Below, in pieces: positions 7,821 to 42,408 of a stretch of DNA of 64,000 bases. Within the stretch, counting starts at the first letter, position 1; the number at the start of each line of letters is the position of its first letter. Origin of the DNA: an uncultured Pelagibacteraceae bacterium (lineage in GTDB: Bacteria > Pseudomonadota > Alphaproteobacteria > Pelagibacterales > Pelagibacteraceae); the NCBI GenBank assembly GCA_902521075.1, contig CABYQM010000004.1:54443-118442 (forward strand), written 5' to 3'. A model generated the notes under the pieces. The model was given only the letters and a program-made list of their open reading frames with translations, ran no database searches and was not told the origin of the DNA. A program made the position numbers and the translations under genes.

Positions 7821-8616
7821 AATGTTATTTGCAAAAATTCTGTTTTATATTTTTATTATTTACTTTGGGGTTTCTCTAATAGTTTATTTTTATCAAAGAA
7901 AATTATTATACCATCCTGGAGAAAATAATTATTTAGATGAGGGACCTCTATCTCACAAAATCGAAAAAGTAACTATTCAATCTGATAATGATCTGGTTGG
8001 ATGGTATTACAAAAAAAATAATAACTCTAAAACTTTGCTTTTTTTTCACGGAAATGCTGGAAAATTAGATAATAGAATTTATAAACTAAATGAGTTTGCA
8101 GATTTAGATTTAAACTATTTAATTTTTGCATATAGAGGCTTTAGTGGAAACAAAGGCAAACCAACAGAAGTTGGACTTTATAAAGATGCAATTAAAGCCA
8201 AAGAATGGCTTAATCAAAACAATATAGAAGATAAAGATATTGTTCTCTATGGAGAATCTCTTGGCACTGCTGTAGCAATAGAGACCGCAAGTAACAATTT
8301 ATTTGCAGGTATAATATTAGAGTCCCCATTTACATCCATGGAGATTTTGGCGCAAAAATATTACCCATATCTTCCTGCAAAAATTATTTTAAAAGATAAA
8401 TACAAATCTATTGAAAAAATTAACAAAATAAAGTTTCCCATGCATGTGATGCATGGGAAAAAGGATAAAATTGTACCATTTTATATGGGTGAAGAAATAT
8501 TTAATAAATATGGTGGTGTTAAGTCAAATTATTTTAATGACAACGACGACCATATGATGGAATTTAATAAAAATTTAATTCAATCAATCGACAATTTTAT
8601 AAAAAGTTTAAATTAA
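7804..8616 (+). CDS. Membrane-anchored alpha/beta hydrolase (BEM46/ABHD13-like)
   Basis: N-terminal TM, FFHGNAG, YRGF, nucleophile elbow GESLG, HGKKDKIVP, catalytic His near the C-terminus. Confidence 0.88.
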   Translation: MKLKPKMLFAKILFYIFIIYFGVSLIVYFYQRKLLYHPGENNYLDEGPLSHKIEKVTIQSDNDLVGWYYKKNNNSKTLLFFHGNAGKLDNRIYKLNEFADLDLNYLIFAYRGFSGNKGKPTEVGLYKDAIKAKEWLNQNNIEDKDIVLYGESLGTAVAIETASNNLFAGIILESPFTSMEILAQKYYPYLPAKIILKDKYKSIEKINKIKFPMHVMHGKKDKIVPFYMGEEIFNKYGGVKSNYFNDNDDHMMEFNKNLIQSIDNFIKSLN

Positions 8617-8664
8617 GACATAATTTAAACAAATCCACATCACTTTTAAATTCTAATTTTAGAT

Positions 8665-9228
8665 ATGTTTAAATTCCTTTTATTACTTTTTTTATTAATA
8701 TTGCCAACAAAACTTAGTTCAGAAATAAATAATGAGTACTATGATAACAATTATTTTCATATTGGAAAAATGAACTCTTACAATAGTGAGTTCACTTTAT
8801 ATTTTAAAACACGGAAGAAAGCTATCTTAGCAAAGGGTGAATTTTATAATTATATTAATGATTTTCCACAGGACTTATACTTATATGATAAAAATTTAAA
8901 TAAAGATTACCCTCTGATTTCATATGACTGGTTTCCAAAAAAAGTTAAAAAAATATCAAAAAAATATAATTACCCACTTTTCCCAGAGGATTTTGCTTAC
9001 TATTTATTACATGACAACAACACTTTAATTTTGATAAGTGCAAAAAAAAATTTTTATGAAAATTTAAAATATGACATAAAAAATAATAAGCTAGAAATTG
9101 CTAAGACTTCTGGCAAATTAAATTTTATAATCTCTTCTTATGCTGAAAACTGTGGTTATAAATCTCTAAAAAATAATTTTGAGTGCAACATTTATAAACC
9201 TTTAATTTCTAAAAATTTGCTTAATTAA
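8665..9228 (+). CDS. Hypothetical exported protein
   Basis: 187 aa ORF with a signal-peptide-like N-terminus (MFKFLLLLFLLILPTKLSS). It fills the gap between the hydrolase and the convergent ftsY. Confidence 0.65.
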   Translation: MFKFLLLLFLLILPTKLSSEINNEYYDNNYFHIGKMNSYNSEFTLYFKTRKKAILAKGEFYNYINDFPQDLYLYDKNLNKDYPLISYDWFPKKVKKISKKYNYPLFPEDFAYYLLHDNNTLILISAKKNFYENLKYDIKNNKLEIAKTSGKLNFIISSYAENCGYKSLKNNFECNIYKPLISKNLLN

Positions 9229-10138
9229 CTTGGGTAAATGCACTTGCAAACTTCTCAGCTTCAAATATTTGTAAGTCATCCTCTTTTTCTCCAAGCCCGA
9301 GACCAACAATAGGTACTTTATATTTCTTTGAAATCGCAATCAATATTCCACCTTTTGCAGTTCCATCAAGTTTTGTCATTATGATGCCTGTGATTGGAAG
9401 TAATTTATTAAATTCTTCGAGTTGATTAATTATATTTTGTCCCGATGTTGCATCTAAAACTAAGATAACCTCGTGAGGTGCTGTTTCATCACTTTTTTTA
9501 ATTACATTTCCTATTTTTTTTAATTCATCCATTAAATTCTTTTTATTTTGTAATCTTCCTGCCGTGTCTACTATTACTTGATTTATGTTTTGACTTTGAG
9601 CTATTTCCATTGCTTTAAAAGCAACTGAAGCTGGATCTGAACCAGGATCTGATTTTACAATTTTAGCATCAACCCTGTTAGCCCATTCTTCTAATTGATC
9701 AATAGCAGCTGCTCTAAATGTATCGCATGCTGAAAAAAGAACTTTATTATTATTTTGTATAAATATTTTTCCTAATTTTCCAATAGTAGTTGTCTTACCA
9801 ACTCCATTAACACCTGAAACTAATATTATATTTGTCTTTTCTTTTTTTAAGAAAAAATCTTTCTTTTCTAGGGGTTTCATTAGTTCTAAAATATAATTAT
9901 TAAGTATTTCAAAAACTTCCTTTATTGGATCATTTTTTGGATCAATCTTTTTTTGAGCAATTATAGATTTTATCTCTGATGCTGCATCTATGCCCACGTC
10001 TGAGCCGATCAAGAATTCCTCTATTTTATCAAGAGTTGTATCGTCAATTTCTTTCTTAACTATTATTTCTTTAAGACCTGATGCTATATTACTTGCACTT
10101 CTTTTAAATCCGATTTTAAATTTTTCAAAAATACCCAT
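9221..10138 (-). CDS. ftsY: SRP receptor FtsY
   Basis: GVNGVGKTTT, DTFRAAA, DTAGRLQ, TKLDGTAKGG. Confidence 0.97.
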   Translation of the reverse strand: MGIFEKFKIGFKRSASNIASGLKEIIVKKEIDDTTLDKIEEFLIGSDVGIDAASEIKSIIAQKKIDPKNDPIKEVFEILNNYILELMKPLEKKDFFLKKEKTNIILVSGVNGVGKTTTIGKLGKIFIQNNNKVLFSACDTFRAAAIDQLEEWANRVDAKIVKSDPGSDPASVAFKAMEIAQSQNINQVIVDTAGRLQNKKNLMDELKKIGNVIKKSDETAPHEVILVLDATSGQNIINQLEEFNKLLPITGIIMTKLDGTAKGGILIAISKKYKVPIVGLGLGEKEDDLQIFEAEKFASAFTQVN

Positions 10139-10962
10139 TATATTTTGATATTAATTTTTTCAATTTCAGATACAGGACCTCTCATTTTTATATTTAATTC
10201 ATTATCAATTTGAATATTTAAAATTCCTGTTGAAAATTCTATTTTTGAATTACTATTTTGTAGTTGATTTAAATTAGCTGCTACTGCCGTTGCACATGCT
10301 GCAGTCCCGCAAGCTTTTGTTAAACCAGCGCCCCTCTCCCAAACTTTAATTTTGTAATGTTGTTCACTAATTTTTTGAGCTATCGTGACATTACATTTTT
10401 CAGGGAAAACTTCATGATTTTCTATTAATGGACCATACTTTTTTAAATTTATTTTTTCTATATCCTCGCAAAAATATATGACATGAGGGTTTCCAACATT
10501 CACTGCAATACCACCATTCATTTTATTTCCGTCAATATCAATCATACCAAGTGATAGATTTTTAGTATCAAGATCTTTACTTAAAGGAATTTTGTTCCAC
10601 TCTAAATTTGGAGTTCCAATTATTGTTTCAACATCTTTATTATTAAGGACCTTAGATTTTAATATTTTTGAGGAAACCGAAATTTCAATTTCTTTTTTAT
10701 TTTTTTCAATACTTAGTAAATAAGCAACGCATCTAGTTCCATTTCCACATGCATCTGAGCGGCTTCCATCCGAGTTAAAAAAAGCAACATCAGCATCAGC
10801 TTTTTGACTTTTTTTTATGTAGATCAACTGATCGCACCCTATGAAATCTCTGTCACAAATTTTTAAGATTTGGTCATTTGATAAGTTTAAATTATTTATT
10901 CTCTGATCAATAATAACAAAGTCGTTACCTAATCCATCCATTTTAAATGCTTCAAATTCCAT
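10138..10962 (-). CDS. dapF: Diaminopimelate epimerase
   Basis: KMDGLGNDF, CGNGTRC, VGNPH, WERGAGLTKACGT. Confidence 0.96.
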   Translation of the reverse strand: MEFEAFKMDGLGNDFVIIDQRINNLNLSNDQILKICDRDFIGCDQLIYIKKSQKADADVAFFNSDGSRSDACGNGTRCVAYLLSIEKNKKEIEISVSSKILKSKVLNNKDVETIIGTPNLEWNKIPLSKDLDTKNLSLGMIDIDGNKMNGGIAVNVGNPHVIYFCEDIEKINLKKYGPLIENHEVFPEKCNVTIAQKISEQHYKIKVWERGAGLTKACGTAACATAVAANLNQLQNSNSKIEFSTGILNIQIDNELNIKMRGPVSEIEKINIKI

Positions 10963-34929: not shown

Positions 34930-36327
34930 ATGTCAGAAAAATTTGATGTTACAGTAATTGGTGGTGGTCCTGGTGGTTATGTTTGTGCAATTAGATTGTC
35001 TCAACTTGGACTTAAAACAGCATGCATAGAGTCTAGAGGATCTCTAGGAGGGACATGTTTAAATATTGGATGCATCCCATCAAAAAGTTTACTTAATTTA
35101 TCTGAAAAATTTCACAGTGCTAAAAATTTTGAAAAAATTGGAATCGAGACTGGAGAAATAAAACTCAATTTAGATAAAATGATGAAAAATAAAGACAAAG
35201 CTGTAACAGTTTTGACTAAAGGAGTTGAATTTTTATTCAAAAAAAACAAGGTCACTTATTTTAAAGGCAAAGGTTCATTTGAGAACGAGAATTCAATAAA
35301 AATTGAAGGCTTGGAAGGCACTAAAATAATTCAAACTGATAAAACAATAATCAGTACAGGATCAGAGCCAGTTTCATTGCCTGGAGTAGATTTTGATGAA
35401 GAGAGAATTCTTTCTTCAACTGGAGCCCTATCTATTCCCAAACTCCCAAATAAAATGATTGTTGTTGGTGGAGGATATATAGGGTTGGAAATGGGATCAG
35501 TTTGGTCAAGACTTGGCACTGAAGTCACAGTCGTTGAATTTTTAGATCATATCACGCCTGGAATGGATCGAGATATTTCAAATGAATTTATGAAAATATT
35601 AAAGAAACAAGGTATAAAATTCAACCTTAATACTAAAGTTGATAAAATAACTAAAAACTCTAACGGTGTGACGGTTGAGACTTCGCAAAATGATGGCCAA
35701 AAAGTTAAACATGATGTTGATGTTGTTTTAATTTCTGTAGGAAGAAGACCTTATACTAAAAACTTAAATTTAGATAAAGTTGGTGTAAAGTTAGATGAAA
35801 AAGGAAGAGTTAAAGTAAATAAAAATTTTGAAACGAATGTTAAAAATATTTATGCAATAGGTGATGTTATTGATGGCCCAATGTTAGCCCATAAAGCTGA
35901 AGAGGAAGGAATTGCAGTTGCAGAATTAATAGCAGGCCAATCAGGTCATGTTAATTATGATATTATTCCTGGAGTTGTTTATACATCTCCTGAGGTTGCT
36001 TATGTTGGCAAAAGCGAGGAGCAATTAAAAAAAGAAAACATAGGTTATAAAATTGGTAAATTTCCTTTTATGGCAAATTCAAGAGCCAAAGCAATTGATG
36101 AGCCAGAGGGTTTTGTAAAAATTTTGGCAGACCAATCAACTGATAAAGTGCTTGGTGTACATATTATTGGTCCTCATGCAGGAGAAATGATAGCTGAGAT
36201 GGCTGTCGCAATGGAATTTGGAGCTAGTTCCGAAGATATTGCAAGAACATGTCACGCACACCCAACATTTTCTGAAGCTATAAAAGAAGCAGCATTATCA
36301 GTAGATAAAAGACAAATTCACTCTTAA
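34930..36327 (+). CDS. lpdA: Dihydrolipoamide dehydrogenase
   Basis: GGGPGGY, GGTCLNIGCIPSK, HAHPTFSE; ends KRQIHS*. Confidence 0.98.
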   Translation: MSEKFDVTVIGGGPGGYVCAIRLSQLGLKTACIESRGSLGGTCLNIGCIPSKSLLNLSEKFHSAKNFEKIGIETGEIKLNLDKMMKNKDKAVTVLTKGVEFLFKKNKVTYFKGKGSFENENSIKIEGLEGTKIIQTDKTIISTGSEPVSLPGVDFDEERILSSTGALSIPKLPNKMIVVGGGYIGLEMGSVWSRLGTEVTVVEFLDHITPGMDRDISNEFMKILKKQGIKFNLNTKVDKITKNSNGVTVETSQNDGQKVKHDVDVVLISVGRRPYTKNLNLDKVGVKLDEKGRVKVNKNFETNVKNIYAIGDVIDGPMLAHKAEEEGIAVAELIAGQSGHVNYDIIPGVVYTSPEVAYVGKSEEQLKKENIGYKIGKFPFMANSRAKAIDEPEGFVKILADQSTDKVLGVHIIGPHAGEMIAEMAVAMEFGASSEDIARTCHAHPTFSEAIKEAALSVDKRQIHS

Positions 36328-36328
36328 T
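36307..36328 (+). repeat. attL-like direct repeat (lpdA last 7 codons)
   Basis: AAAAGACAAATTCACTCTTAAT, 19/22 identical to 41740-41761. Confidence 0.8.
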
Positions 36329-36449
36329 GTCCTACATTATCCTATAAAATCTTAAATTCTCCTTTAATACCAAAGGTAATAATCAAATTAGCTAACTCTT
36401 ATAATATTTTTTTAGTTTGTTGTGGTTGCTAACTTTTTTAAACATTTAT

Positions 36450-36512
36450 TTTACAATTCTTGGTCTTTTCTTGGTTCGCAATCAAAAAATCTCTTGGTCC
36501 GCTCTTGGTTCG
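36450..36512 (+). repeat. Two copies of TCTTGGT-N4-TCTTGGTTCG (arm-type-like sites, left end)
   Basis: TCTTGGT at 36458, 36469, 36492 and 36503. Segment 36450-36478 is 26/29 identical to 41648-41676. Confidence 0.85.
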
Positions 36513-36612
36513 CGACTGTATTGCTCTTATCCAAATAGACTCAACGATCAGGATTTGTTAATCTTAAATCATTTAATGTTTAATTTACTGATATACATTA
36601 ATAATAGATAAA

Positions 36613-36641
36613 TTGTTGTTTAGTATTATCTTTGTTACAAT
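36613..36641 (+). promoter_or_regulatory. Putative extended -10 sigma70 promoter for mod, probably leaderless
   Basis: TTGTTG-17-TACAAT with TG at 36633-36634; the ATG starts 7 nt after the -10 box; no SD. Confidence 0.5.
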
Positions 36642-36647
36642 CATTTT

Positions 36648-38879
36648 ATGGATTTAAGTGATAGTGAAAAACGAGATTTAATAAATCTAATTGAAAATAA
36701 TAAGTCATTACCAGAGCAATATAGATTTAAACTTTTTAAAAAGAACGAGGAAATAGAATTACTATGGAATGGAAAAAGTAATGAGGTTACGAATGTTAAT
36801 CTTCCATTTCAAATTATAGAACATGTCGATGAACCACGTAAAAATATCGAACCAGAATTACAAGGAAATTTATTTGATACTAGGGGCAGAAAACTAACTG
36901 GCTGGACAAATAAATTAATTTGGGGAAATAACAGTCTTATTCTCTCTAGTTTAATTAATGGTGAGTTAAAGAATGAAATTGAAAAACAAGGTGGATTAAA
37001 ACTTGTATATATAGACCCACCATTCAACGTTGGTGATAATTTTGAATTTGAGCTGGAAATTGGCAAAGAAACTTTATCAAAAAAGAGAAATGCGCTTGAG
37101 CAATTAGCATTCGGTGATACATGGGGCAAAGGCGAGGATAGTTTCTTGTCGATGATTTATGAACGTTTAAAATTGATACATTCCCTACTACATGAAGATG
37201 GTTTGATATTTGTACATTGTGATTGGAGATTAAATTCTTCTTTAAGATTAGTTTTAAATGAAATTTTTGGAGAAGATTGTTTTAAAAACGAAGTTTACAT
37301 AAAGAGAAAAACAAAAAATATTCAAAATCAATTTTCTGAAGTAAAAATGCTTAATATTGCCTTTGACTCAATTTTTATATTTTCAAAAAAATCAGATAAA
37401 AAAATTAGAGTTCCAAAAAAAAAATTATTAGAAGCAAATGTTGATGGTAAATGGAATAACTTTTGGAACAATGCTGATAGGCCAACTATGAGATATGAAT
37501 TGTTGGGCATCAAGCTTACAACTGGACAATGGAGATGGAAAAAAGAAAAAGCGATAGAAGCTGTTGAAAATTACAATGAATACATAACGAAGCATAAACA
37601 TTTAACCTTAAAGGAATATTGGGAAAAAACTGGGAAAGAAAAAAGATTCATTATGCGTAAAGAAGGTGCTACAAGATGTTATTACTGGGTACCACCAACT
37701 GAAGAAACTACTGTTGATACAGATTGGACAGATTTCTATGGTTACGACAATGCTCAGCCCTATCCAACTGCAAAATCAGAATTATTATTGGATAGGATTA
37801 TCAAAAATTTCAGTGATGAGAATGATTTGATAGCTGATTTTTTTTGTGGAAGCGGCACTACATTGTCAGTAGCAGAAAAATTAAATAGAAAATGGATTGG
37901 ATGCGATTTAGGTAAATTTGCAATTCATACTTCTCGTAAAAGATTAATAGAAGTGCAAAGAGACAAAGAAAAGAATGGTGAACATTTTAGGCCATTTGAA
38001 GTTTTAAACTTAGGTAAATATCAAAGAGAATTTTTCTTCAAAGATTATTTGTACAACCAAAGAAATATTAAAAATGAACAAAGTGAAGAGCATTATTATG
38101 ATTTAATTTTAAAAGCATATAAAGGTAAAAAAGAGGAAGGTTATAGAATAATAAAAGGTACCAAAAATAATAGAGCGGTAGCTATTGGTCCATTTAATTT
38201 ACAAGTAACTAGATTATTTGTTGAGAGTGTTATTAATGAATGTTTAGAGAATAAAATTTTATCAGTTGATATTTTAGGTTTTGAATTTGAAATGGGATTA
38301 TTTCCAAACATCAGAGATATTGCTGGTAAGCAAGGTATAGATCTAAACTGCCTTTATATTCCTAACGATATATTCGACAAAAAAGCAGTGAAAAAACATC
38401 AAATTATTTTTTACAATACTGCTTTCATTGATGCTCAAATTGTTACAAAAAAAAAAGAATTTTGTGTGAAGTTAAAAGGCTATGTAGTTTTTGACAGTGA
38501 TACTTTGTTTGAAGAAGCTTTGAGTGAATTAGACAAAGGAGAAAAAAGAGAAATTTTAATGAACAATTCAATTATTAAAATTGAAAAAGGTAAAGATGGA
38601 AAAATAAAAAAGCAAGTAATCAAAATGAATTGGAGTGACTGGGTTGACTATTGGAGTGTTGATTTTGATTTTGAAAATAAAAAAGAAATTATAAAAGAAG
38701 ACGGCAAAGACAAATGGACTAACGATTATATTTTTGAAAATGAATGGCAGTCTTTTAGATCAAAAGAAAATGAAATAGAATTTGAAACACCATGTAGACC
38801 AATTGTCAAAGGAAAGAAAATAGCTGTAAAAGTAATTGATATTTTTGGAAATGATACAATGAAAATTTTGGAAATGTAA
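36648..38879 (+). CDS. mod: Type III restriction-modification DNA methyltransferase (Mod, amino-MTase beta class)
   Basis: YIDPPF (motif IV) precedes DFFCGSGTT (motif I) with a variable TRD between them; C-terminal AVKVIDIFGND; directly upstream of Res. Confidence 0.9.
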   Translation: MDLSDSEKRDLINLIENNKSLPEQYRFKLFKKNEEIELLWNGKSNEVTNVNLPFQIIEHVDEPRKNIEPELQGNLFDTRGRKLTGWTNKLIWGNNSLILSSLINGELKNEIEKQGGLKLVYIDPPFNVGDNFEFELEIGKETLSKKRNALEQLAFGDTWGKGEDSFLSMIYERLKLIHSLLHEDGLIFVHCDWRLNSSLRLVLNEIFGEDCFKNEVYIKRKTKNIQNQFSEVKMLNIAFDSIFIFSKKSDKKIRVPKKKLLEANVDGKWNNFWNNADRPTMRYELLGIKLTTGQWRWKKEKAIEAVENYNEYITKHKHLTLKEYWEKTGKEKRFIMRKEGATRCYYWVPPTEETTVDTDWTDFYGYDNAQPYPTAKSELLLDRIIKNFSDENDLIADFFCGSGTTLSVAEKLNRKWIGCDLGKFAIHTSRKRLIEVQRDKEKNGEHFRPFEVLNLGKYQREFFFKDYLYNQRNIKNEQSEEHYYDLILKAYKGKKEEGYRIIKGTKNNRAVAIGPFNLQVTRLFVESVINECLENKILSVDILGFEFEMGLFPNIRDIAGKQGIDLNCLYIPNDIFDKKAVKKHQIIFYNTAFIDAQIVTKKKEFCVKLKGYVVFDSDTLFEEALSELDKGEKREILMNNSIIKIEKGKDGKIKKQVIKMNWSDWVDYWSVDFDFENKKEIIKEDGKDKWTNDYIFENEWQSFRSKENEIEFETPCRPIVKGKKIAVKVIDIFGNDTMKILEM

Positions 38880-38881
38880 TT

Positions 38882-41536
38882 ATGTCTTTAACTAAATCAC
38901 CTTTTGAAATTGTAGATCCTAAAGAAAGATGGATTCCAACAGTTGAAAAAGACTTAGGCAAGTTTTTACCTCCTTTGGTTCTTAAAATTAGAGAAGAAGT
39001 TTATGAATGGCGACAACAAAAATATAAAGGAGCTACAACTACTACAAAAGCATTGCTTAAATGGTGGTTTGATACAGAGCATGAAAATTTTAGATATTAT
39101 TTTGCTCAACGTGAAGCTGTTGAGACTATAATTTTTTTACACGAAATTGCTAACATTAGAGATAAAGACCAACTTTTTAATAATTATAATTCTTCATTAG
39201 AAGTTACTCAAAAACACTTTACTGAAAATTGGTTAAGATTAGTAACTAAAATGGCAACAGGAAGCGGCAAAACTAAAGTCATGTCTCTACTGATAGTTTG
39301 GAGTTATTTTAATAGATTATATGAGGAGAATAATGAGCTTAGTTCTAACTTTTTAATAATTGCACCAAACATTATTGTATTAGACAGATTAAAAACTGAT
39401 TTTGATAATTTAAATATATTTAGAGAAGATCCCTGCATACCAGAAGATGGAATAAACAATCAAAATTGGAAAATAGATTTTTTTAGTGATGTTGAAATAC
39501 ATGTTCAAAAACAAGCTAGAGTAAAAAAACAAAAAGGTAATATTTTTTTAACTAATATTCAGCAAATTTATGCAGGTAGAGAAAAAAATCCAAGTTTAGA
39601 TGATGAAGATTTAACAGATTTTTTTTTTGGTAAAAAAGTCAAAAAAAAACTGGAAAATACTATAGATTTATTGAAGCTGATTAAACAAGTTGATGAATTA
39701 ATTGTGCTTAATGACGAAGCCCATCATATTAATGATGAAGACCAAGTTTGGTATAAAACAATTCAAAACATTCATAATAGTTTGCTGTCAAATAACAGTA
39801 GGTTATCACTACAATTAGATTTTACGGCAACTCCAAAACACAAAGATGCATCAATTTTTGTTCAAACGGTTTCGGATTATCCTTTGATTGAAGCAATTCA
39901 TCAAAATATTGTTAAAAATATTGAAGTTCCTAAAAAAATTTATAGAGACGAATTAAAATCATTACCATCAACCAAATTTTCTGAAAAGTGGAGACAATTT
40001 ATCGATTTAGGCTACATAGAATGGAAGAAAAGTTACAATGTTTGTTTAGAGACAGACAAAAAAGCTTTGTTATTCATAATGACAGACGATACAAAAAATT
40101 GTGATGATGTAGCAAATTATTTAGAAAATAATTATGATGATTTAAAAGGAAGAGTTTTAACTATTCATACAAATAGAAATGGAGACATTGTTGAAAATGA
40201 AAATGCTCCAAAAAAAACAAAAGAGGAATTACAAAATCTTAGAAGAGAAGCTAATACAATAGATAATATTGACAATGACAAAGTAGTTATAGTTTCTGTT
40301 TTAATGCTTAAAGAAGGTTGGGACGTAAACAATGTTACAACAATTGTAGGTTTAAGACCATTTGCTAAACCTAAAATTTTGCCAGAACAAACCTTAGGAC
40401 GTGGATTAAGAAAAATGTATAGAGATCAAAATTTATTAGAAAGATTGACCGTAATCGGAACACCAAATTTTATGGAGTTCGCTAAAGATTTAGAAAAAGA
40501 AGGTATTAAAGTTAAAGAGATAGATGTAGGAGAAGACGTTCCTCCATTTTTTATTACATCAAAAGTTGTAGAGGATGAGAAAGTAAAAGAAAAATTAGAT
40601 ATAGAATTCCCCCAAATTATTGAAAAGATTTTTAGAAATGATGAATTAATTAAAACAATAGAAGTAAGTAAATTCAAATTTAAACCAGTAGAGTATAAAA
40701 ACATAGATTTGATAAAAAAAATGAAAATTGAATGGGAATTTACAGTAAGCAAAGAAACAAGCAGAGTTGAGGAGTATGAAAGAAATTATGCTTTAGATGT
40801 TTATAATATTTTAGGTGCATTTGCTAAAGAAGTTATGGATGAACTTAAATTAAAACAAGGAATGGGTTTTGAAACTATTTGTGAAAAGATAAAAGATTTA
40901 ATCGAAAATTATTTGTTTGGTAAGAAAATCGAATTTGATAATGATCTAACAAAAGCAAACTTATGTATAATTGAAACAAGAAGAACAATTGTTTCAATAA
41001 TGGTAGAAGAAATTAAAAAAGTGATTATCAATGATAGAACTGAAAAAAAACTTGGTAAGACACTGAGGTTTAGTGAAGATAAAAATAAAAGAGTGCAAGA
41101 TGGAACGACAGCAATTTATTTTGAACCTGAAAAAAGTGTATATAATAGACACTTCCTTGCAAACTCATATGAAGAAGATATGAATGTTTATTTAGAAAGC
41201 TTACCAGACGTAGTTTCTTGTATTAAGAATATGGGCTTTATTAAAATACCATATCAAAAAGTAGATGGAGTATGGGCTTCATATATACCTGATTTTTTTA
41301 TTAAACTTGGAGAAAATGAATATTGTATTTTAGAAACTAAAGGAGCAGAACATATTAATGATCCGATCAAAAGAGATGCATTAAAAAATAAAGTTAAACA
41401 AATTAATGAAGGACAAAATAAAATAAAATATTCAACTTTATATGTACTTCAAACAAAATTTGAGAAATTGGAAGGAAGACCATCTACATTTAAGACTTTT
41501 TATGAAATGTTTAAAGATTTAGATATTGAACAATAA
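38882..41536 (+). CDS. res: Type III restriction endonuclease (Res): SF2 helicase plus PD-(D/E)xK nuclease
   Basis: YFAQREA, KMATGSGKT, NDEAHH, FTATP, LKEGWDV, EQTLGRGLR, C-terminal YIPDF...LETKG. Confidence 0.92.
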   Translation: MSLTKSPFEIVDPKERWIPTVEKDLGKFLPPLVLKIREEVYEWRQQKYKGATTTTKALLKWWFDTEHENFRYYFAQREAVETIIFLHEIANIRDKDQLFNNYNSSLEVTQKHFTENWLRLVTKMATGSGKTKVMSLLIVWSYFNRLYEENNELSSNFLIIAPNIIVLDRLKTDFDNLNIFREDPCIPEDGINNQNWKIDFFSDVEIHVQKQARVKKQKGNIFLTNIQQIYAGREKNPSLDDEDLTDFFFGKKVKKKLENTIDLLKLIKQVDELIVLNDEAHHINDEDQVWYKTIQNIHNSLLSNNSRLSLQLDFTATPKHKDASIFVQTVSDYPLIEAIHQNIVKNIEVPKKIYRDELKSLPSTKFSEKWRQFIDLGYIEWKKSYNVCLETDKKALLFIMTDDTKNCDDVANYLENNYDDLKGRVLTIHTNRNGDIVENENAPKKTKEELQNLRREANTIDNIDNDKVVIVSVLMLKEGWDVNNVTTIVGLRPFAKPKILPEQTLGRGLRKMYRDQNLLERLTVIGTPNFMEFAKDLEKEGIKVKEIDVGEDVPPFFITSKVVEDEKVKEKLDIEFPQIIEKIFRNDELIKTIEVSKFKFKPVEYKNIDLIKKMKIEWEFTVSKETSRVEEYERNYALDVYNILGAFAKEVMDELKLKQGMGFETICEKIKDLIENYLFGKKIEFDNDLTKANLCIIETRRTIVSIMVEEIKKVIINDRTEKKLGKTLRFSEDKNKRVQDGTTAIYFEPEKSVYNRHFLANSYEEDMNVYLESLPDVVSCIKNMGFIKIPYQKVDGVWASYIPDFFIKLGENEYCILETKGAEHINDPIKRDALKNKVKQINEGQNKIKYSTLYVLQTKFEKLEGRPSTFKTFYEMFKDLDIEQ

Positions 41537-41589
41537 TGAGTGATAGTGACAAAAAAAAAGATCTGATCACAATACTATTTGACCAATAA
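41536..41589 (+). pseudogene. 17-codon mini-ORF or gene relic coupled to the res stop (MSDSDKKKDLITILFDQ)
   Basis: TAATG overlap with res; resembles the Mod N-terminus SDSEKRDLI. Confidence 0.3.
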
Positions 41590-41647
41590 AAAAAGTTTTA
41601 ATAATGTTAATTTTAATCGAGAATACTAATCAAATATTTGTAAAGAA

Positions 41648-41676
41648 TTTACAATTCTTGGTACATTCTTGGTTCG
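41648..41676 (+). repeat. Third TCTTGGT-N4-TCTTGGTTCG copy (right end of islet)
   Basis: TTTACAATTCTTGGTACATTCTTGGTTCG; TCTTGGT at 41656 and 41667. Confidence 0.85.
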
Positions 41677-41739
41677 GAAAGTATGAGAATGAAATTGGTT
41701 CTAGAAGCCTTGATTATTAATGATAATAGAGATCTGTTA

Positions 41740-41761
41740 AAAAGGCAGATACACTCTTAAT
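41740..41761 (+). repeat. attR-like direct repeat: displaced duplicate of the lpdA 3' end
   Basis: AAA AGG CAG ATA CAC TCT TAA = KRQIHS*, the same peptide as the lpdA C-terminus with 3 synonymous differences. Confidence 0.8.
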
Positions 41762-41763
41762 AA

Positions 41764-42408
41764 TTATTTTTCTACATTCAATAAAGCAAATCTTTTAAAT
41801 TTTTCTTCAAGTTTTATTTTATTATTATTTGCAAAGTCTTTTATTGCTTTTTCAACACTTTCAATTTTTGTAATACCTGCAAAATCATCACAAACAATTT
41901 TAGAGTTATTTTTCATGTTGTCATAAAGTTTTTGTAAATCACTTAAAACAGTATCGTAACTATGGCCTCCATCTAAAAATACGAAATCAATTTCACTTAA
42001 AGGAACTTTTTCTAAAGTCACCCTTGTGTCTCCTTTTATTAGCTCAATATTTTGCGAAAATTCCTTTAAAAAATTTTGAACAGATATCTTTGAATTTAAA
42101 TTTTCTTTTTTTATGAAATTATAATAGATAGTTTTAAGTGGATTCGAAAACTTTTGATTTTCAAGAAATTTAGGTTCGATCTCATCTACACTTGATGTTT
42201 TAGAAGATCCAAATAAATCTAATCCGTAATATCTAAAATCACTACCAAAATTTGTCTTTAACAATTCACATATATTTCTTGATGTAACACCACAAAAAAC
42301 ACCGATTTCTAGAACATTTTTTGGCTTATATTCCTCAACTAAACTCAAAAAATTATCCCCATAAGGTTTTTTTAAACCTGATTTTCTCCAGTAATAATTA
42401 TATTTCAT
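41764..42408 (-). CDS. Class I SAM-dependent methyltransferase (Methyltransf_24-like)
   Basis: VLEIGVFCG, YYGLDLF, DFVFLDGGHSY, VCDD. Confidence 0.82.
   Translation of the reverse strand: MKYNYYWRKSGLKKPYGDNFLSLVEEYKPKNVLEIGVFCGVTSRNICELLKTNFGSDFRYYGLDLFGSSKTSSVDEIEPKFLENQKFSNPLKTIYYNFIKKENLNSKISVQNFLKEFSQNIELIKGDTRVTLEKVPLSEIDFVFLDGGHSYDTVLSDLQKLYDNMKNNSKIVCDDFAGITKIESVEKAIKDFANNNKIKLEEKFKRFALLNVEK

Follow-up and report, generated by a model that had tools for sequence, protein, structure and literature searches.

The genomes of SAR11 bacteria hold many small variable cassettes at recurrent positions and almost no mobility genes, which raises the question of how such cassettes come and go. 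An October 2026 preprint (10.64898/2026.10.07.757358) leaves the mechanism unresolved and places 0.1% of such genes near an annotated integrase (here and below, statements on cited sources refer to the accessible parts of each). We analyzed a 64,000-nt stretch of DNA, hereafter the window, from an uncultured Pelagibacteraceae bacterium (GenBank assembly GCA_902521075.1, contig CABYQM010000004.1, positions 54,443 to 118,442 of the forward strand). In the window, a Type III restriction-modification (R-M) gene pair, framed by a short direct repeat, lies directly after lpdA and forms an islet with no integrase. Judging from sequence comparison, this islet is an integrase-less cassette whose insertion into the end of lpdA is likely the work of a tyrosine integrase, that of 9-kb phage-satellite-like elements found at this very site and with matching ends. 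The lpdA locus would be a testable answer for at least one SAR11 variable site.

The islet is enclosed by two copies of a 22-nt repeat (36307-36328 and 41740-41761). They have three mismatches, all synonymous, and each encodes KRQIHS and a stop codon, as an initial annotation of the window had described. Only two of the approximately 2.18 million positions of the 1.09-Mb assembly (both strands) lie within three mismatches of the left copy and one further position lies at four; outside the 22 nt, the likeness between the copies ends. The inserted DNA is 5,433 bp long. We searched 61 genomes for lpdA ends and read the 30 best loci, 28 of them within the genus. In 14 of these 28, priA comes directly after lpdA; in three, a methyltransferase gene stands alone between them; in nine, other genes lie there and no arms (repeats described below) were found; the remaining two, the window and G006, show arms together with a second core.

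Three relatives of about 98% identity (G012, G029 and G020; flanks 97-98%) lack the islet. Their sequence is exactly the left copy of the window and then continues as the DNA that follows the right copy. Therefore, lpdA retains its native end, the three differences belong to the element's part of the right junction, and the last 10 nt, CACTCTTAAT, contain the crossover. The initial annotation had hesitated between this 10-mer and an AAAAG stretch, a choice that is now settled. It had also reasoned that relatives without the R-M genes should not keep both KRQIHS copies; these three have a single end, with boundaries at the repeat, and their methyltransferase stop (41764-41766 in the window) lies 3 nt past the lpdA stop, the tight packing it had expected of an empty site. 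A wild metagenome contig (run X4) also shows the empty site, with 36318 joined to 41752, 5,433 nt skipped and a depth of 115; at this joint, 10 letters could belong to either flank. Three relatives and a wild contig thus bear out a site-specific insertion at the 3' end of lpdA. Besides, a fifth close genome (G388, lpdA 99% identical in DNA) has a different cassette at the lpdA site. Regarding the coverage drop that the initial annotation had proposed to check, depth in the islet was 0-14 vs 119-268 on the right flank (four runs, three studies), although such a contig depth ratio is no measure of cell share and one run may be the source sample. One run also gave a contig joint from 36528 to 41579 (side 25, likeness 90; absent at likeness 95), which might be a cargo-free cassette. 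The features of the locus are as follows.

34930-36327, + strand: intact lpdA (dihydrolipoamide dehydrogenase) that has kept its native 3' end and whose final codons serve as the target (Pfam Pyr_redox_2 and Pyr_redox_dim; end the same as the empty-site allele in G012, G029 and G020)
36307-36318, + strand: left junction, half on the host side; likely serves the integrase as a core-type site (matches the empty site)
36319-36328, + strand: left copy of the 10-nt shared core that holds the crossover (contig joint 36318 to 41752, 10 letters fitting both sides)
36321-36327, + strand: part of the left core copy that is the counterpart of the 7-nt anticodon loop of tRNA(CAT) (by the register of the tRNA)
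36329-36457, + strand: cassette-type left-end spacer; the lpdA stop lies 130 nt from the first arm repeat (left-end clade of 35 rows)
36458-36509, + strand: two TCTTGGT repeat pairs, likely arm-type sites of an integrase (repeat scan; 11-nt period, pairs 34 nt apart)
36536-36564, + strand: promoter-like TAGACT-N17-TAATCT, from which transcription of the first cargo gene is predicted (a conserved feature of left ends of the cassette type)
36648-38879, + strand: Type III Mod methyltransferase, 743 aa, intact frame (PADLOC MTase_III, E 2.7e-86; DPPF at 123, FCGSG at 399)
38882-41536, + strand: Type III Res subunit, 884 aa, intact frame (Pfam ResIII, PADLOC REase_III; GSGKT, DEAH, QTLGR and PD..E.K motifs)
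41628-41640, + strand: one exact match to the IHF-site consensus, weak
41653-41753, + strand: right end, in which an arm pair (41656-41673) and the three 'synonymous' differences are found (all 101 nt agree with the autonomous G158 satellite at its right junction)
41752-41761, + strand: right copy of the 10-nt shared core
41764-42408, - strand: convergent S-adenosylmethionine-dependent methyltransferase that is not part of the islet (among empty sites, only those of close kin have it)

As the initial annotation had it, Mod and Res are the only genes between the copies, and a tblastn search with 16 cognate integrases found no integrase or integrase remnant in the islet (best E 0.098). The non-coding gaps on both sides of the gene pair (36328-36647, 320 nt, and 41537-41763, 227 nt) are the longest in the window, also as annotated; an apparent gap of 876 nt is an open reading frame that runs past the window end. 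The left gap contains only a 64-codon TTG frame overlying repeats that had been overlooked. These are pairs of TCTTGGT within both islet ends, two pairs on the left and one on the right, and are likely arm-type sites of an integrase. The four-repeat left motif with the same spacing occurred in 15 of 401 genus genomes, and the reversed controls gave no match. In 14 of the 15 it lies 117-130 nt past the lpdA stop, and in the last one at the inner junction of a stack that starts at lpdA. The right-end motif was present in 19 of the 401 genomes (one match, in G380, by chance) and absent from the reversed controls.

The initial annotation had suggested a search for relatives with the same ends plus a tyrosine integrase, and such elements do exist. 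G158 and G062 have elements of about 9 kb at lpdA, each encoding a family A DNA polymerase, a small terminase and, immediately behind the left arms, a 509-514-aa protein. The IMG/VR contig L076 (9,177 nt, overlapping ends) has the same satellite genes, and its single junction reads right arm, core, left arms and then integrase. In L092, two satellite copies lie 9,100 nt apart; this pattern and the overlapping ends of L076 may stem from packaging as concatemers in phage particles, or from assembly, which can create both. In these satellites, the TCTTGGT pairs sit directly upstream of the integrase gene, whose product is 506-517 aa long across lpdA loci and junction-bearing contigs. Among 67 metagenome loci (L099 repeating L092), 17 motif places are followed by an integrase-type protein, 11 lpdA junctions are not, and 24 motif places have no core.

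In Pfam, the satellite protein stays under the integrase cut-off (E 5e-4 and 5e-5), and an alignment of nine rows shows no variation in its R, K, R, H and Y motifs. A structure model built from a 64-row alignment reached a predicted local distance difference test (pLDDT) score of 89.3, had lambda Int as its top fold match (E 5e-9), and showed a three-strand sheet plus helix at the N-terminus. From this model and its fold match, the protein is predicted to be a three-domain lambda-type integrase, with arm-binding, core-binding and catalytic domains. A first model from nine rows was discarded (pLDDT 40), and the nine-row profile matched no solved structure. No phage record was found to encode the satellite integrase.

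Of the 401 genus genomes, 19 have element ends, located at lpdA or immediately ahead of priA (the assembly of G228 covers only the right end, ahead of priA); this count is a floor, since most assemblies are incomplete. Two of the 19 carriers have the cognate integrase, the only two in the 401 genomes and both at lpdA; two distant relatives of it lie beside tRNA-Thr genes. Hence, one could argue that the cassettes are moved by a host recombinase such as Xer, or by another resident enzyme, and that satellites merely share the site, as 17 carriers (mostly incomplete assemblies) have no cognate integrase. We consider this very improbable, given that the arm-like repeats adjoin the satellite integrase gene and are identical letter for letter with those of satellites. 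Xer proteins are not known to have an arm-binding domain, and a PF00589 search of G000 (assembly 78.5% complete) gave zero matches, not even XerC or XerD, both of which are likely unassembled.

The link to satellites, which the initial annotation had guessed at, is most direct at the right end. Over the 101 nt at 41653-41753, the window and the right junction of the G158 satellite do not differ, and with the cassette L177 the identity extends over 83 nt. In a tree of right ends, cassettes and satellites are intermixed, and the window pairs with G158 (support 98/94). The initial annotation had taken the downstream copy as a synonymously recoded end that replaces the native end of lpdA. In its favor, the three differences are synonymous in the host of the window, and the two junctions of G158 (L085, at about 1426 and 10377) differ at three core positions that are all synonymous for H-S-stop. 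But the upstream copy is the empty-site allele of three relatives, so the copies had been assigned the wrong way round, and for this islet the idea is refuted. Moreover, the three 'recoded' bases lie inside the stretch shared with the G158 satellite and are therefore element sequence. That stretch is unchanged in a satellite whose host ends in KRAIHS and a stop, and in a cassette whose host has 83% identity in the lpdA protein. Finally, there is no synonymy rule, since only 2 of 28 element-side copies read KRQIHS, the others being KSQ (11), KRT (9), KTT (2), KTP (2), ITT (1) and KRA (1). Recoding is thus the least credible explanation that we considered. The G158 junctions may mean that the integrase tolerates a mismatched overlap.

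The left ends tell a different story from the right ones. In their tree, 35 cassette-type rows form one clade (support 100/100) without any integrase-bearing member, and the remaining 25 rows are all the satellites plus four integrase-less derivatives. The closest relative of the left-end spacer of the window is L177, with 81% identity. A motif like TAGACT-N17-TAATCT is present in 20 of the 35 cassette-type left ends vs none of the 25 satellite-type ones, and many cargo genes begin a few bases past it. We infer that it is a promoter; a scan for the sigma-70 consensus and for terminators gave nothing exceeding shuffles and did not flag it.

Cargo at the site is varied. We found a 1,531-aa helicase weakly like the defence proteins ProA and Hhe (G006, with a relative in G283), one to five pilins (G120, G371, G215, L164, L176 and L181), whole type IV pilus loci without an integrase (G066 [L079, L183], G165 [L080], G193 [L090, L185-L187] and L173), exported and membrane proteins (G388, G273, G311, G295 and L177), and a trio that includes egtD (G066). 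R-M genes make up one of the 17 integrase-less cargo sets of the genus draw, that of the window. The lpdA site is a hotspot for swappable cargo and not one for defence only; of the anti-phage hotspot first proposed, the hotspot has stood, whereas anti-phage cargo is not the rule. Cassettes also form tandem stacks with inner element-element junctions in G120, G066 and G193, the last one of about 48 kb; in G066, a type IV pilus locus of about 24 kb is followed by a second cassette before priA. The cargo of G070 and that of G274 share 91% identity across 3.3 kb, against just 74% for the lpdA genes of the two genomes, which points to transfer of cargo between distant hosts. A scan of genomes of all species gave 20 loci, 19 of them in Pelagibacteraceae, of which we read 10; these were kept out of the count of 19 in 401, and some may duplicate the draw.

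Could the islet be a dead remnant? Under this explanation, a former satellite lost its genes, gained the R-M pair and no longer moves site-specifically, so that its spread or loss would depend on homologous recombination alone, by way of lpdA and priA. Recombination is high in SAR11. L104 and L120 are decay intermediates in which an integrase stub is followed by cargo, four integrase-less elements retain satellite-type left ends, the integrase is rare (2 of 401), and no circle joint was seen among the joints listed. The Arctic preprint (10.64898/2026.10.07.757358) also favors homologous replacement. Against it, the left end of the window belongs to a separate, conserved 35-row lineage that has kept its spacing and promoter-like motif, which decay alone would not preserve. 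The same cargo is found in hosts whose lpdA is 74% identical, tandems with clean junctions require repeated site-specific events, and the right end has not drifted from that of the satellite over 101 nt. We therefore regard a dead remnant as unlikely, the origin of the insertion by an integrase of the satellite family as close to certain, and continued mobility of the cassettes through the integrase of the satellite family as quite probable.

According to the mechanism that we propose, the satellite integrase would bind the TCTTGGT pairs and cut in the core. A visiting or tandem satellite would provide it, and cassettes could therefore excise, circularize and re-insert, with the promoter supplied by their own left end. 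They would obtain satellite right ends via deletion within tandems. As to mobilization in cis beside a tandem helper, the fragment L106 has a right end of cassette type fused to a left end of satellite type. Integrase-less elements may arise in two ways, by decay of satellites and from a standing cassette lineage that acquires satellite right ends in tandems.

Why lpdA? The sister satellite L162 (38% integrase identity) has at its junction the 5' half of tRNA(CAT), ending at the anticodon loop, and in G661 a related integrase lies beside tRNA(CAT). ARAGORN calls this tRNA tRNA-Met; from its likeness to tRNA-Ile(GAT), it would belong to the Ile2 class. The commonest lpdA end (11 of 26 read) agrees with tRNA(CAT) at 16 of the 18 nt that run from the D stem to the anticodon loop; no other of the 2,174,608 positions of G000 matches this tRNA as well. 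In a midpoint-rooted integrase tree of 33 rows (five near-duplicate or truncated rows omitted), the lpdA clade (100/100) is sister (99/99) to a group with two tRNA(CAT)-targeting integrases, and the tRNA-Thr integrases fall outside. In L134, an lpdA-type right end is joined to the 3' half of tRNA(CAT). On balance, we favor a switch of the integrase family from the anticodon-loop target of tRNA(CAT) to a look-alike in lpdA, which would have happened because the commonest lpdA end mimics this tRNA, with somewhat less assurance than continued mobility. As for related observations, L134 has at about 8130-10250 (motif orientation) an lpdA-type remnant of fused left and right arms on the tRNA(CAT) 3' half, 1.9 kb past an intact copy. 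Related integrases are found 5' of tRNA genes in L160, L161, L218 and L220 (tRNA-Thr) and in L162 and L217 (tRNA(CAT)), L162 carrying the 5' half of the tRNA instead of the usual 3' half.

Several observations weigh against our interpretation. None of the 35 cassette-type left ends adjoins an integrase. The G158 junctions differ at three of seven loop positions, a misfit to strict overlap homology. The search for junctions recovered the empty-site joint, but no joint of an islet circle was among those listed (five runs, contigs only). The lpdA integrase clade has no Pfam match of its own in the arm-binding domain (Arm-DNA-bind_3 is found only in relatives), and the match to a solved arm-binding domain used an alignment with distant P4-like integrases and is partly circular. 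No integrase was found in G000, whose completeness of 78.5% leaves room for a resident one. The nine genus loci with other genes between lpdA and priA and no arms found mean that not all variation there is explained. Regarding the tRNA, the lpdA allele of the window itself matches tRNA(CAT) at only 13 of 18 nt, the sister group has a support of 87/83 with four of its six rows lacking a known site, and in tRNA-targeting elements the core orientation is reversed relative to the integrase gene.

A broader picture can be sketched, which we offer as speculation with a fair way to go before it reaches even chances. SAR11 would harbor a standing lineage of cassettes that are parasites of satellites, with their own left end and promoter, borrowing integrase and pelagiphage capsids and swapping pilins, pilus loci, exported proteins and defence genes across the genus; lpdA would be a target only since its last six codons spell the anticodon arm of a tRNA.

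In order to contextualize these results, we compared the lpdA cassettes with known systems. In integron arrays, small cassettes are stacked at one chromosomal site under one integrase. The lpdA cassettes differ from them in having no resident integrase, in being bounded by arm-bearing ends of about 100-240 nt and in apparently bringing their own promoter. Like the cis-mobilizable elements (CIMEs) defined from integrative and conjugative elements (ICEs) of Streptococcus, the islet keeps both junctions, has no integrase or transfer genes, belongs to a family with tandem accretion at one gene end and would rely on a related autonomous element (PMC5704250). Its helper, however, would be a phage-satellite-like element with an integrase, PolA and TerS, and not a conjugative ICE; we found no conjugation genes among the helper proteins scanned. 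The single-clade left end shared across many hosts, the promoter-like motif and the choice of a gene of the tricarboxylic acid (TCA) cycle as target are further differences. As to an origin by decay, which is part of the CIME concept, the right end is identical to that of a satellite over 101 nt and stubs exist, but the left-end clade has no integrase-bearing member. By analogy, the islet seems to work like a cis-mobilizable element with a satellite helper.

The helpers G158, G062 and L076, with integrase, DNA polymerase and small terminase in about 9 kb, resemble module 6 of the VEIME satellites (PMC9618062), which has Pelagibacter hosts, a tyrosine integrase and, in some members, a small terminase and DNA polymerase; the likeness is to the published description of that module. 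The islet itself differs in carrying no satellite genes, only Mod and Res. No target gene of the VEIME satellites is named in the text or the seven spreadsheets of that paper (its supplementary information PDF lay outside our scope), nor does the text mention integrase-less dependants. Tycheposons of Prochlorococcus are similar in that cargo-carrying and satellite forms occur at common sites, where they give rise to the variable islands of a streamlined marine genome, but they encode their own integrase and use tRNA or tmRNA genes, whereas the lpdA cassettes have no integrase and use lpdA (10.1101/2020.12.28.424599). Heterobivalent lambda-type systems and anticodon-loop islands of tRNA genes also have a short core, arm repeats on both sides, a three-domain integrase and a displaced target fragment at the far end, and Islander gives anticodon-centred sites as a main class (PMC4383910). 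Here, in contrast, the target is the end of a protein gene that resembles an anticodon arm, and the integrase differs from the lambda-type family in having K where H is usual in HxxR. With this K and a score below the Pfam cut-off, annotation pipelines would likely miss it.

Previous work reports few SAR11 mobile elements, or ties them to tRNAs (PMC11796062, PMC11876622 and the preprint 10.64898/2026.10.07.757358), and the accessible text of these three sources has no match to lpdA or to its product name. Our literature searches, with subscription journals and preprint supplements outside their scope, found no report of lpdA as a SAR11 integration target. The locus would provide a new pair of integrase and target at a conserved core gene of a genetically hard-to-handle group, and an example in which the move of an integrase from a tRNA target to a similar sequence within a protein gene can be followed. 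It also suggests that the integrase need not adjoin the cargo: present in about 1 in 200 genomes and below the Pfam cut-off, it is easily overlooked, while the short ends reveal the cassettes.

The R-M cargo is in itself ordinary. The adjacent mod and res genes carry methyltransferase, helicase and nuclease motifs, which identifies them as a Type III R-M pair, and it likely restricts phage DNA. Res has relatives in 29 clusters at 59-96% identity, after which identity falls to about 45%. A 42% relative is present in two other genomes of the 401, on other contigs (L189, G021:C16, and L190, G155:C15); the lpdA-priA gap of G021 holds sugar-pathway genes and no R-M. GC (guanine plus cytosine) content failed as an islet marker, as it does not separate the islet from the genes to its right. 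The convergent methyltransferase (41764-42408) lies between lpdA and priA only in the close kin of the window (G012, G029, G020 and G388), without repeats, and is an older, separate gain.

Other loci also deserve mention. The egtD three-gene set between lpdA and priA has arms in G066 (L183) and none found in G034 (L031:292-3127), where it is possibly an eroded cassette. In G193 (L185:4498-4649, minus strand), the start of a pilin gene enters a core-like sequence and terminates there, which is possibly a secondary target. The 1,387-nt metagenome contig L156 holds an element-element junction, after which come a left end of cassette type, a single gene for an exported protein and a right arm; it is part of a tandem or of a cassette circle.

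Finally, we discarded a number of matches. The left-junction 20-mer was absent from viral contigs, and of the 16 viral contigs matching one arm pair none was island-like past the motif, so we attribute them to chance. A single-protein integrase scan of viral contigs gave 12 pattern matches, none of them confirmed, and an alignment-based scan found two. The second viral match to the four-repeat motif, L077, proved to be repetitive sequence of an unrelated phage fragment, and the matches L175 (Clostridia) and G380 arose by chance. Of the 17 metagenome loci that we read, mostly core-less, most are simple repeats or unrelated DNA, while L101, L106 and L134 are true element ends.

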